A stretch of DNA of 20,683 nucleotides, taken from IMG/VR virus record IMGVR_UViG_3300017988_000043; one strand, written 5' to 3'. The stretch comes from a virus. Made by a program: the position numbers and the translations under genes. The notes beneath the pieces were generated by a model, which worked only from the letters and a program-made list of their open reading frames with translations, had not been told where the DNA came from and made no database searches. Positions 152 through 18,722 of the stretch are shown in pieces (position 1 is the stretch's first letter; each line of letters begins with the position of its first letter).

Positions 152-289
152 TTACCTCCGATGCGTTGTAGTGTGGTTTACTTCGCGCCAACCAGACGCG
201 CCTGAATCAGACTGATCGCGTCTGATACATGACTTCTCTCGCTTCCGCATCGCTTGCTTAATCTTGATATTTGCCTTTAGGTTCGCCAT
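152..289 (-). CDS. small ORF (45 aa, MANLKANIKIKQAMRKREK...), possibly leaderless
   Basis: ATG lies exactly 6 nt downstream of the TATACT box of conserved promoter copy 1. Its stop TAA sits inside the SD of the next gene. Confidence 0.2.
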   Translation of the reverse strand: MANLKANIKIKQAMRKREKSCIRRDQSDSGASGWREVNHTTTHRR

Positions 290-292
290 ACC

Positions 293-340
293 TACAGTAT
301 ACCGGGGAGGCACAGGTTTTGGCTAGTATTTTGGGAAATT
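293..340 (-). promoter_or_regulatory. conserved promoter-like element copy 1 (minus-strand TATACT -10-like box, TAGCCA -35-like, A-rich upstream)
   Basis: Plus-strand text cctacAGTATACCGGggaggcacagGTTTTGGCTAGTaTTTTGGGAAATT. Near-identical to copies at 11748, 13848 and 16283. Confidence 0.5.
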
Positions 341-356
341 TTTTGCTGGGTTGAGG

Positions 357-758
357 CTATTTTTGCTGGGATTCAGGAGCACCGGGCGACCCCTGCACAC
401 CTTGAACGCCTTGAATTCCTTGAATTCCCTGCACGCCGCCCTTACCGTTCCTAGCCGCCGTCATCATGGTAGCGATGTCTGAGAACGTAGCCGAGCCCTT
501 GTTGATGCCGTAGGGCAGCGCAATGAGCCCAATGAGGGAGGCTATCAGCATCGGCATATTCGCCAGCCAGATGCTTACCTGAGACACGTCCTGCAACTGG
601 AAGATGTGGTAGAAGCAACGCCAGATTAGCCACATGGTGAATATGGAGAAAGCATACATGAGCACGCGAGTGGACGAAGGGGTGCCGTCAGGTTCAGATA
701 GAACTCCACGCAGCCAGTTTAGAAATCTTGGAAGCGGCAACTTGTCAACCCACGACAT
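357..758 (-). CDS. small membrane protein (2 predicted TM helices) with C-terminal collagen-like GxQ repeat tail
   Basis: 133-aa ORF with ATG and SD (AGGAGAGAAG). Hydrophobic stretches IFTMWLIWRCFYHIF and MPMLIASLIGLIALPYGI. C-terminus GKGGVQGIQGIQGVQGVQGSPGAP is encoded by 9-bp tandem repeats (cttgaaygcc) at about 380-440. Confidence 0.6.
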   Translation of the reverse strand: MSWVDKLPLPRFLNWLRGVLSEPDGTPSSTRVLMYAFSIFTMWLIWRCFYHIFQLQDVSQVSIWLANMPMLIASLIGLIALPYGINKGSATFSDIATMMTAARNGKGGVQGIQGIQGVQGVQGSPGAPESQQK

Positions 759-772
759 AACTTCTCTCCTAC

Positions 773-16928: not shown

Positions 16929-17466
16929 GAGTCGCCTCTGAATCATGTTGATGATGAATAGCGGAATTGGTTTTGCAGAAAGCCAGCAGTCCAAAGATGA
17001 ATGCGGCATAGATAGTGAGCATAGCGGCAAGGTGCGGCCAGTTCAAATTATCCATGTGGAGAAACACTTGAAGCAAATGCACCGAGGCTACGCCGATGAG
17101 AGAACCAGCCATCTTCTCTTTCAAGATGCCCGAAGAAATATGTGTGAGACAACGTGGTCGTCTCTTTTTCGATATACCAGTGTCGATGAAGACGTAATAG
17201 CTCCCGGCAGAAATAAGCCAAATGAGATTGGCGACCATTGTGATGTCCAGAAGCTGGAGCACAACAAGCGTGTGCTCATTCAGAGCCTCCGCTTGAACTC
17301 GTCCCATGAGAACTTGATAGAAGTCCACGATGATGGTAAAGATACGAAACAGAAGGGCGAGAAACAAAGGCACAAGCAAGTATCGAGACAGGAGTATGAC
17401 ACTCTCGACTGCATGAGCGAACCCTTTTCCTAAATGGGTCACAACCCTACTCGCTGTGGACGGCAT
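16915..17466 (-). CDS. integral membrane protein (183 aa, about 4 TM)
   Basis: Multiple hydrophobic segments (ILLSRYLLVPLFLALLFRIFTIIV, VANLIWLISAGSYYVF, LTIYAAFIFGLLAF). ATG start. Confidence 0.6.
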   Translation of the reverse strand: MPSTASRVVTHLGKGFAHAVESVILLSRYLLVPLFLALLFRIFTIIVDFYQVLMGRVQAEALNEHTLVVLQLLDITMVANLIWLISAGSYYVFIDTGISKKRRPRCLTHISSGILKEKMAGSLIGVASVHLLQVFLHMDNLNWPHLAAMLTIYAAFIFGLLAFCKTNSAIHHQHDSEATHENT

Positions 17467-17911
17467 GACGAGTTTCCTCCCACTCAGCTAATGAAACTTC
17501 CACACCATCCCACTTGAAGCCAGAACAGATGCTGGCGAATGGAGCCCAATCTTTGTACTCAAATCTGTTCACGTCCACGTCTTTTGGTACCTTGGTTTCT
17601 TTCTGGTACTCGACCCCTTCAATGTCATAGTGACAATATTTGCAGCCTATGGGGCTCATGTCTTCATAGGTGTCGAAATGGCGATAGTAGGGGTGACCAC
17701 ATAGACACAGTTTGAGGTCACCAAACATTCGGTCGTAGCCCATCGGTGCGTTCAGAATGTCCACGGCTGGCATCCAGACCTCACCGTAAATCGTTGTCAG
17801 ATGCTCCGAGAAAACAGAACGAAAAATCGCCGACTGAATAATCACACCACGGCGAGTCAGAATCAACTGACCATCTTTCGGTGGTTTCGAAAATGGTGTC
17901 CACTGCAACAT
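17447..17911 (-). CDS. hypothetical protein (154 aa) with CLCGHPYYRH...CKYCH zinc-finger-like cluster
   Basis: ATG start. TAA of the upstream AbrB-like ORF lies 5 nt before it. Confidence 0.55.
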   Translation of the reverse strand: MLQWTPFSKPPKDGQLILTRRGVIIQSAIFRSVFSEHLTTIYGEVWMPAVDILNAPMGYDRMFGDLKLCLCGHPYYRHFDTYEDMSPIGCKYCHYDIEGVEYQKETKVPKDVDVNRFEYKDWAPFASICSGFKWDGVEVSLAEWEETRHAVHSE

Positions 17912-17915
17912 GTTG

Positions 17916-18077
17916 TTACGCTTTCTCGAACGTGACCTTCACCAAGTCGCTGTCCTTGAGCCCAAGCTGTGTCATGATTGCCCGACTGACATAGTAATCG
18001 CCAAGGGCATCGACCACGACGGCATCATTTTCCACGGCGACGGGCTTCATGCGAACGGAACCTTTCACTTTTTCCAT
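17916..18077 (-). CDS. AbrB/MazE (SpoVT_AbrB swapped-hairpin)-like small protein, 53 aa
   Basis: VSRAIMTQLGLKDSDLVKVTFEK resembles the AbrB/MazE core (PKEIRExLGLKEGDxVEV). ATG with GAGG 10 nt upstream. Absent from ORF track (<60 aa). Confidence 0.4.
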   Translation of the reverse strand: MEKVKGSVRMKPVAVENDAVVVDALGDYYVSRAIMTQLGLKDSDLVKVTFEKA

Positions 18078-18469
18078 TTCAGTCCGCCTCTCGCGTCTCT
18101 ATACATCTGACGAGCACCGGGAGCCCCGCGTAACCAAGTTGCACAACCAAAGTCCTCATCGTACATCGAACTGATGCTGAGAATGGGGAGTCCATTGGAG
18201 TCAACCACCACGTTGGTTTTGTCACCAATCAGTTCCAGCCGGTCGATGAGTTCCCTAACAGTCAGGTAGTGCTCATTCTCCTGTTCCGCTACCTCCGGCT
18301 CCTTCTGTTTCTTGACGGAGAACATGAGACACATCACAACAGCAGCAGCGACGGCGATACCCGACCCGATGAAGTTGTGTCTATCGGCGAAGCCGGAGAA
18401 CACATCGACAAGAATGACGATGATGCACCCGTTATGAACCCACTTGATTTGTTTTTCTGTGAGTTGCAC
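18065..18469 (-). CDS. membrane-anchored protein (134 aa; two N-terminal TM helices)
   Basis: GTG start with AGGAGGG SD. Hydrophobic segments CIIVILVDVFSGFA and IGSGIAVAAAVVMCLMF. Confidence 0.5.
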   Translation of the reverse strand: MQLTEKQIKWVHNGCIIVILVDVFSGFADRHNFIGSGIAVAAAVVMCLMFSVKKQKEPEVAEQENEHYLTVRELIDRLELIGDKTNVVVDSNGLPILSISSMYDEDFGCATWLRGAPGARQMYRDARGGLKWKK

Positions 18470-18722
18470 TCTGGCCCTCCTGTTGCGCCTTCTTCAAGGC
18501 GTCCAGCATCCAATCCGGCATCCCAGTAAAGTTGAGATGCCACAACCCGTATTGGCTTACAGGCTGTGGCTCCCAATCTCCGTCAAAAAATCCACGCTTC
18601 TTCCGAGCAGCATTTATCTTCGCTGCCATGGAAGGTGTCATTGGTAACTCTGCCCGAACGCTTCCATCCGGGCGCTTCAAAACGTACAGTAATTCCTGTC
18701 CAGCCTCGGTATCAGGTTTCAT
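18432..18722 (-). CDS. hypothetical protein (96 aa, MKPDTEAGQELLYVLKRPDGS...), probably leaderless
   Basis: ATG 6 nt after TATACT of divergent promoter copy 5. Track N-terminal extension reads through the promoter. Confidence 0.45.
   Translation of the reverse strand: MKPDTEAGQELLYVLKRPDGSVRAELPMTPSMAAKINAARKKRGFFDGDWEPQPVSQYGLWHLNFTGMPDWMLDALKKAQQEGQSATHRKTNQVGS

Follow-up and report, generated by a model that had tools for sequence, protein, structure and literature searches.

A conserved TATACT promoter family of an uncultured large-phage lineage, with transcripts predicted to begin at an AUG or at a Shine-Dalgarno sequence

The IMG/VR virus record IMGVR_UViG_3300017988_000043 comprises 20,683 nucleotides (nt) of DNA, here called the window and analysed over its full length, and its closely packed genes are all encoded on the minus strand. 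The hexamer TATACT occurs 12 times in this window, 11 times on the minus strand, compared to an expectation of 2.9 over both strands. Five of these hexamers, with first bases at positions 18734, 16290, 13856, 11757 and 301, have a long block upstream in common and belong to one family of predicted promoters, which are named after these positions (P18734 to P301; Table 1). In three of the five, an ATG follows TATACT after exactly six nt and begins an open reading frame (ORF): TATACT-gtaagc-ATG precedes ORF C with 96 amino acids (aa), TATACT-gtagtc-ATG precedes ORF B with 65 aa and TATACT-gtaggt-ATG precedes ORF A with 45 aa. No other TANNNT-N6-ATG site on the coding strand begins an ORF of 40 or more codons. 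The two other copies continue as TATACT-atgggt-GGGAGAGaagaATG and TATACT-gtaggg-GAGGAGaaaaaccGTG and carry a Shine-Dalgarno (SD) sequence. A first-pass annotation of the window had pointed out the distance of six nt in three of five copies, and its coordinates are right, with every element and every ORF lying on the minus strand.

The shared cassette spans about 45 bp and is composed of an A/T tract, the block AAAACTAGCCAAAAC, 14 nt and TATACT. Among 62 copies collected from relatives, the consensus reads AAA-a/t-TT-C-AAAAACTAGCCAAAAC-(~10 variable nt)-ccGG-TATACT. Inside AAAACTAGCCAAAAC lies TAGCCA, followed by an 18-nt spacer that ends in GG and then by TATACT, an arrangement that was flagged in three copies by a scan for sigma-70 promoters. 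TATACT itself is invariant across the family, including the A at position 2 and the T at position 6 that a sigma-70 -10 element requires, and the 6-nt discriminator behind it usually ends in T. TAGCCA matches TTGACA at four of six positions, at a spacing of 18 nt and embedded in a near-invariant block of 15 nt, which suggests that more than a plain -35 hexamer is recognised. P18734 is the most divergent of the five copies. Upstream of P301, the direct repeat TTTTTGCTGGG is found at 340-350 and 360-370 (plus-strand coordinates) together with a degenerate second -35-side block at 350-364; this partial tandem duplication is kept in the related contigs L170, L173 and L174. Two terminator-like matches on the plus strand (11758-11778 and 13857-13877) were rejected, as they are promoter spacers read on the wrong strand. 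The hexamer is also found on the coding strand without the family block, once as TTGCAA-18 nt-TATACT before the gene 7421..7170 (window positions 7462-7491) and once at 10265-10270 on the minus strand, 21 nt before an SD-led gene (10243..9920). Since TATACT hexamers occur outside the family as well, TATACT seems to be the generally preferred -10 element of this genome.

On the minus strand ATG has a frequency of 0.018 per position, and its presence at one offset in three of five copies has P = 5.8e-5, or 1.8e-3 after correction for 31 offsets. No SD sequence is present at a functional distance from the three ATGs, which are preceded only by gtaagc, gtagtc or gtaggt, the AGG of the last being 1 nt from the ATG. 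For a wider sample, copies of the family in relatives were retrieved by their upstream sequence and TATACT only, with nothing specified downstream, using AAAACTAGCCAAAAC for viral contigs and ACTAGCCAAAAC-N12-GGTATACT for metagenomes and genomes. Collapsing identical copies resulted in 63 non-redundant family members, among which an ATG is found at offset 6 in 21 copies, at offset 5 in three and at offsets 7 and 8 in none, with an average of about 1.4 at the others. This enrichment has P = 3e-19 for all copies and P = 5e-15 (17 of 56) when the window's own lineage is left out, which bears out the claim of the first-pass annotation that the identical spacing is unlikely to be due to chance. All 21 ATGs at offset 6 open ORFs of at least 50 codons, and most of these ORFs reach 94 codons or more or continue without a stop to the end of the retrieved sequence; for comparison, the 50-codon length is attained from 16% of the ATGs on the non-coding strand. 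The N-terminal sequences of the 21 predicted proteins fall into about 15 unrelated kinds. Counted from TATACT, the base at +6 is T in 44 of the 63 copies and the base at +7 is a purine in 54, and this T-purine step agrees with the Y-1 R+1 'start element', which sets the position of transcription starts in bacteria at large (PMC12641261). In addition, the 21 predicted leaderless messages have less structure in their first 36 nt than in internal windows of their ORFs (mean minimum free energy of -3.9 vs -6.6 kcal/mol, P = 5e-4), and this 5' part is richer in A (32% vs 23%). GTG is present at +7 in nine copies and TTG in one, none of which opens an independent long ORF, in keeping with the dependence of leaderless initiation on AUG; the SD-led genes of the family use ATG, GTG and TTG as start codons.

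In 11 copies, +7 is the exact first position of a G-rich SD sequence (GGGAGAG, GGAGAG or GGAGGA), and in three more the SD begins at +9; the predicted leaders of the SD-led copies measure 10-16 nt. Taken together, +7 is the first base of a functional RNA signal, ATG or SD, in 32 of 63 copies, as is expected if transcription starts at this position. The proposal that one family drives both kinds of genes, those with an ATG at +7 and those led by an SD, is thereby upheld for the two SD-carrying copies of the window and for the relatives. The 194-aa gene behind P16290 has a homologue in L069 with 87% aa identity and the same promoter and SD, and no protein match in the phage collection. About 11 family promoters with the spacer TTTTGACYGCTRGG, on the contigs L178, L183, L186, L187, L189, L196, L198, L202, L207, L218, L044 and L220, are not followed by an ORF. 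They precede conserved sequence such as GTGTACTAAAAACCCTCCCGTTTTTGACCTCTTCTGCGTCGA or TGTAYAGMRAATCCAGCCC, which may be a phage non-coding RNA; an Rfam search with a member of this class in L201 gave no match beyond a sub-threshold chance hit.

Table 1. Features of the window and their coordinates (position 1 is the first base of the window)
Feature	Position	Strand	Remarks
P18734	18729..18778	-	TATACT 18734..18729; block AACACTATCCAAAAA 18763..18749, preceded by A-tract; within 3' end of 74-aa gene
P16290, SD type	16285..16334	-	TATACT 16290..16285; predicted start G 16278 is the first base of GGGAGAG
P13856, SD type	13851..13900	-	TATACT 13856..13851; predicted start G 13844 within GGGAGGAG
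P11757	11752..11801	-	TATACT 11757..11752; block AAAACTAGCCGAAAC 11786..11772; within 3' end of ORF 12124..11687
P301	296..345	-	TATACT 301..296; block AATACTAGCCAAAAC 330..316; upstream part partly duplicated at 350-370
ORF C, 96 aa	18432..18722	-	ATG at 18722 is the predicted transcription start
ORF B, 65 aa	11548..11745	-	ATG at 11745 is the predicted transcription start
ORF A, 45 aa	289..152	-	
ORF A, first 19 codons (MANLKANIKIKQAMRKREK)	233..289	-	ATG at 289 is the predicted transcription start
ORF A, last 26 codons	152..232	-	Beyond mosaic junction 232/233; stop TAA overlaps GGAGG SD of the next gene
194-aa SD-led gene behind P16290	15683..16267	-	GGGAGAG-aaga-ATG; predicted 5' untranslated region of 11 nt, beginning with the SD
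174-aa SD-led gene behind P13856	13307..13831	-	GGGAGGAG-aaaaacc-GTG start
74-aa gene upstream of ORF C	18725..18949	-	SD GGGAG; last codons overlap the -10 of P18734; stop TAA within discriminator
ATP-dependent DNA/RNA-ligase-like gene, 265 aa	10754..11551	-	GTG start
Gene after ORF A (MAKNAKQARKEW...; 63 aa in L173)	2..145	-	SD GGAGG 159..155; cut by contig end
Major-vault-protein shoulder and repeat domain protein	19012-20409	-	Pfam E = 8.5e-24
UPF0114 membrane-protein homologue	16915-17466	-	E = 3e-15
Protein with twin-arginine signal	7954-8625	-	
PP-binding (acyl-carrier-like) protein, 79 aa	5912-6151	-	Directly after HNH-RNA ligase; Pfam annotation of the Joint Genome Institute (JGI)
ClpB-type AAA protein, 769 aa	773-3082	-	Interrupted by intein

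Among the three ORFs, ORF C is a conserved gene under purifying selection: six distinct orthologues share 63-84% aa identity with it, and its pairwise ratios of nonsynonymous to synonymous substitution rates (dN/dS) range from 0.07 to 0.24, with synonymous sites saturated. The arrangement TATACT-N6-ATG is kept in all six orthologues despite insertions and deletions at the N-terminus, where the proteins begin, for example, with MKPDTEAGQELLYVL, MSTKKQKQQESEEKDILYVL or MKEQEQVYIL. Two of the orthologues were extended by gene callers to 'MYT(V/A)SM', reading TATACT as codons. The upstream 74-aa gene, which has 55% aa identity to its homologue in L069, uses the -10 of P18734 as part of Cys-Ile-Leu codons, and the wobble bases inside TATACT are invariant, which indicates that the DNA motif itself is under selection. 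In the window, the stop of this upstream gene lies 2 nt before the ATG of ORF C, and in L224 and L225 the two codons overlap as ATGA. In searches of ORF A, ORF B, ORF C and P0002 (a sibling gene of ORF A described below), Pfam and PHROGs returned nothing usable; the one family matching ORF C, phrog_25431 of unknown function, did so at only E = 0.004. An AlphaFold model of ORF C (predicted local distance difference test score, pLDDT, 66) gave no significant match when compared to the PDB using Foldseek.

ORF B occupies the position between P11757 and the DNA/RNA-ligase-like gene, and its stop codon TGA overlaps the GTG start of the ligase as GTGA (11551..11548). It was called by JGI from an internal GTG as a protein of 55 aa. 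The first-pass annotation described it as Cys-rich, which overstates three Cys in 65 residues, arranged as CxH...CxxC. A frame-specific Markov model trained on the confident genes of the window scores ORF B at 0.44 in frame and at -9.4 and -11.6 in the other frames; this score is above that of every out-of-frame control window and lies at the 9th percentile of true in-frame windows. In L197, the ligase orthologue (88% identical, aligned residue 1 to residue 1) starts directly at the +7 ATG of a family promoter, and in L069 an unrelated, predicted leaderless ORF of 128 aa takes the place of ORF B and ends in the same GTGA overlap. Homology of this 128-aa ORF with ORF B or with ORF 12124..11687 was considered and rejected, as no similarity was found, and the cassettes are non-homologous. 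These arrangements suggest that the ligase would be expressed either directly leaderless, as in L197, or coupled to an inserted leaderless ORF. In addition, a 94% variant phage (L168) shows zero differences over 12344..11548, a block of 800 nt that includes ORF B, its promoter and the upstream ORFs, and 1.4-19.6% differences in the flanks, with 8.5% in the ligase and 19.6% in the gene 13281..12787. Judged from these comparisons, 11548-12344 is a recently exchanged mosaic module, with a boundary exactly at the ORF B stop and ligase start. As a test of selection on ORF B, L168 was uninformative given zero differences in this block.

ORF A was not called at all by JGI. Its promoter, its ATG and its first 19 codons are identical to those of P0002, a predicted leaderless 77-aa gene of sibling phages, and the phage carrying P0002 is 97-99% identical to the window up to position 232, where homology ends. 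According to the coding model, the last 26 codons of ORF A score -10.4 in frame and +1.6 in the +1 frame (...HVSDAISLIQARLVGAK*), and this tail is probably what remains of the 3' end of another gene. A third variant, found in the independent assemblies L173 and L212, breaks after codon 6 and rejoins the 3' segment of the window in a different frame. Because 19 codons are shared and the tail is non-coding in frame, ORF A can be described as an out-of-frame chimera, that is, an apparently genuine leaderless start fused to the remnant 3' end of another gene, which is probably still translated. P0002 contains LDRLEKAGMI and is possibly a winged-helix protein; its AlphaFold model (pLDDT 56) had no significant Foldseek match in the PDB, and the non-significant ones, a hint only, were mostly winged-helix regulators. 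The non-conserved tail of ORF A also harbors an inverted repeat (CAGACGCG...CGCGTCTG, 186-217 on the minus strand) with an inner ATCAG-T-CTGAT palindrome; it is located upstream of the SD of the next gene, is not followed by a T-run and may form an RNA hairpin.

The favoured explanation, to which a probability of about 0.77 is assigned, is that the five elements represent one strong phage promoter of the sigma-70 type whose transcripts start either at the A of an ATG, and are then leaderless, or at the first G of an SD sequence. In the proposed layout, an A/T-rich UP-like tract, the block AAAACTAGCCAAAAC with its -35-like TAGCCA, the 18-nt spacer, TATACT and the 6-nt discriminator would direct the polymerase to a purine 7 nt after TATACT. 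If this purine is the A of ATG, the result would be a leaderless mRNA whose 5'-terminal AUG is recognised by the ribosome, and if it is the first G of GGGAGAG or GGAGG, the mRNA would carry a leader of 10-16 nt. ORF A, ORF B and ORF C would follow the former design, and the 194-aa and 174-aa genes the latter; ORF B, an orphan placed by insertion between promoter and ligase, would pass ribosomes on to the ligase via the GTGA overlap. The leaderless reading offered by the first-pass annotation is strongly supported by the 21 of 63 copies with ATG at offset 6 and by the spacing kept in the ORF C orthologues, while the transcription start on which it depends remains inferred. Its framing of the genes as micro-ORFs finds no support, as the same arrangement starts the 265-aa ligase and a 501-aa PARP-like gene in relatives. 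The latter (L121, 8941-10446) starts at the +7 ATG of a family promoter and contains a PARP catalytic domain (Pfam E = 5e-21); weak matches to PARP_reg and WGR were found besides.

Several points weigh against this explanation. The assignment of +7 as the transcription start draws on the geometry of the promoter alone. The 15-nt block on the -35 side exceeds a normal hexamer and, since TAGCCA matches at only four positions and the spacer measures 18 nt, a phage-encoded sigma factor or activator may be needed instead of the plain host holoenzyme. Conservation at the amino-acid level, which the first-pass annotation had looked for in the small ORFs, is present in ORF C; for ORF B, a search of 5.8 billion proteins gave itself as the sole match and no homologue, and the tail of ORF A is not conserved in frame, and it is position only that speaks for the translation of these two ORFs. 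ORF C, in turn, could also be fed by reinitiation from a read-through transcript, because the stop of the 74-aa gene adjoins or overlaps its ATG. Finally, the sole hint as to the host, a weak one, is a family copy on a contig binned with Terracidiphilus.

Different explanations of the same elements can be considered. The element could be a promoter whose transcripts start elsewhere, either right after TATACT as in T7-type promoters or several nt upstream, which would result in leaders of 6 nt or more. A G or A is indeed found directly after TATACT in 52 of the 63 copies, and the upstream block exceeds the usual length of a sigma-70 -35 element, making an unusual polymerase or factor possible. 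However, the family is bipartite, with a non-conserved stretch of about 10 nt between its blocks, whereas T7-type promoters are conserved continuously over about 20 bp; the ATG or SD begins at +7 and not at +1 in the 32 copies mentioned above, next to the T-purine step at +6/+7; a 6-nt leader GUAGGU would place AGG only 1 nt from AUG, too close to serve as an SD; and the window contains no RNA polymerase gene. A start at another position is hence considered unlikely. It could further be assumed that the ATGs are real but translated mainly by termination-reinitiation from read-through transcripts, in which case TATACT would not be the cause of the spacing. The co-orientation and tight packing of all genes, and the 74-aa gene ending next to or across the ATG of ORF C, would suit such coupling. 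Nevertheless, the ATG of ORF A lies 68 nt past the previous stop (357) without an SD and that of ORF B 59 nt inside the upstream ORF, and coupling leaves unexplained both the exact 6-nt distance to TATACT plus block in about 15 unrelated genes and the frozen wobble positions of TATACT amid saturated synonymous sites. Coupling may therefore contribute to the translation of ORF C as a second route, is implausible for ORF A and ORF B and, as a general explanation, appears quite improbable.

An alternative view of the mosaic structure would be that the element is a recombination repeat, or a repeat bound by a regulatory protein, at the boundaries of modules, with the ATG carried along in the cassette. 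Breakpoints are found at or just after the element, as the homology of ORF A ends after 6 or 19 codons, the 800-nt block without differences ends exactly at the ORF B stop, and three different cassettes occur between the same promoter position and the ligase. Yet the element is always co-oriented with, and located immediately before, a gene start or SD, and it displays canonical -10/-35 spacing, a UP-like A-tract and a purine at +7; as a role in recombination is compatible with a role as a promoter and not an alternative to it, this view in its exclusive form is very improbable. Pure coincidence, with three ATGs at this distance by chance and ORFs that are not translated, could appeal to the lack of conservation in the ORF A tail and in ORF B, but it is hardly tenable in view of the P values obtained for the window and for its relatives and of the purifying selection on ORF C; chance is excluded.

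Beyond the promoter of sigma-70 type with starts at AUG or SD, a more far-reaching interpretation is conceivable, although it must be regarded as speculative and doubtful. Here, the design would waste no nucleotide, with every promoter-proximal transcript beginning with AUG or the SD itself, the extended -35-side block would be read by a sigma factor or activator specific to the phage, and the host, perhaps a member of the Acidobacteriota, would be either proficient in leaderless translation or reprogrammed for it. In addition, the cassette would be a hotspot of recombination, where leaderless genes would be inserted, exchanged or truncated, with TATACT-N6-ATG re-established each time; the ligase locus (direct start, ORF B or the 128-aa ORF) and the ORF A locus with its three variants would be examples.

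The window forms the end of a 40.8-kb contig of the European Nucleotide Archive (L171), and its closest relative, syntenic and with 55-87% aa identity, is part of a 248-kb contig (L210). Besides the genes described above, the window encodes an HNH-RNA ligase, a histidine phosphatase and further proteins listed in Table 1. Relatives of the protein with the major vault protein shoulder were found in the phage collection only in the uncultured phages LR756500-3 of 462-735 kb, at about 35% aa identity. Because the closest relative lies on a 248-kb contig and proteins match those of huge phages, the lineage probably belongs to the jumbo phages. A megablast search with the whole window as the query gave no match among 50,697 phage records, with no cultured phage similar at the DNA level; a tRNA scan of the window found none and an Rfam scan no family. 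The intein of the ClpB-type AAA protein comprises a Hint domain and a LAGLIDADG homing endonuclease at approximately residues 72-403, and orthologues without it are present in L121 (415 aa) and L170 (425 aa), the latter despite 97-99% identity to the window in the flanks. In L121, which stems from the closest relative, a 402-aa ORF (6442-7650) that resembles TnpB/IS200-IS605 OrfB-type proteins, as judged by eye, is located between the homologue of a 133-aa gene and the next family promoter, and is absent from the window. Most of the related contigs carry JGI series names that presumably denote peat or bog metagenomes. Regarding the host, a search of genome contigs with a 20-base pattern returned three matches, about the chance expectation, and the full family copy was found only on a 182-kb contig binned with a metagenome-assembled genome of Terracidiphilus (Acidobacteriota). 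Leaderless genes have been predicted in all three Acidobacteria genomes analysed by Zheng et al., with a mean of 13% of genes (PMC3160421).

If the proposed start is correct, several consequences follow. Gene callers mis-start or miss genes of this type, and the TATACT-N6-ATG rule could correct annotations across this uncultured large-phage group. For an uncultivated phage-host system, the family would also offer a promoter that is defined by its sequence and whose start is predicted to the single nucleotide. It is further suggested that the host translates leaderless mRNA efficiently, which would narrow host prediction. The promoter-proximal slot represents a hotspot where small orphan ORFs arise, swap and break.

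Leaderless genes with a -10 element adjoining the ORF are known from Deinococcus-Thermus and Actinobacteria (Zheng 2011, PMC3160421; Zhong 2025, PMC12340547; Shell 2015, PMC4633059). The spacing in the phage family is the same as in leaderless genes validated in bacteria: their TANNNT starts about 12 bp ahead of the start codon (PMC3160421), and in D. radiodurans the -10 motif is located 6-7 bp upstream of ORFs, with TACACT, which resembles the TATACT of the phage family, as its commonest form (PMC12340547). The window shares with these genes a TANNNT that ends 6-7 nt before AUG, the lack of an SD and the coexistence of SD-led (GGAG) genes. Unlike these host genes, it belongs to a phage, and its -10 is part of a conserved promoter of about 45 bp in which the -35-side block is fixed and an A-tract is present. 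The bacterial leaderless promoters, by contrast, often display little or no -35 conservation; the phage family also differs from them in serving both leaderless transcripts and transcripts with the SD at the 5' end.

Among phages, most middle and late transcripts of the Thermus phage phiYS40 are leaderless according to the account of Sevostyanova 2007 given in PMC3594737. As far as this account reaches, both cases involve a large phage in which many mRNAs, predicted ones in the window lineage, are leaderless and arise from a conserved phage promoter class. The middle and late promoters of phiYS40 are not known to have a -35 element, and the host phylum of this phage is rich in leaderless genes, with infection shifting the levels of the initiation factors IF2 and IF3. 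In contrast to such a -10-only class, the window family has a strongly conserved -35-side block, and megablast against the phage records revealed no sequence relationship to phiYS40. The lambda cI mRNA from PRM begins at the A of AUG (Shean and Gottesman 1992, as related in PMC12340547), in that case for a single regulatory gene of a temperate switch and not for a repeated promoter family as in the window. Conserved promoter families in large phage genomes are likewise present in the jumbo phages phiKZ, for which differential RNA sequencing gave no leaderless transcript (PMC8244752), and in AR9, whose 5' untranslated regions measure 26-491 nt (PMC5312081); these phages use their own multisubunit RNA polymerases and AT-rich promoters unlike the window family. 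A leaderless start with a -10 adjoining the ORF is thus already known, and the present case adds an example and no new principle, with moderate conceptual novelty. In it, one conserved promoter family of an uncultured large-phage lineage would start its transcripts with either AUG or the SD, and the slot next to the promoter is a hotspot of cassette exchange.

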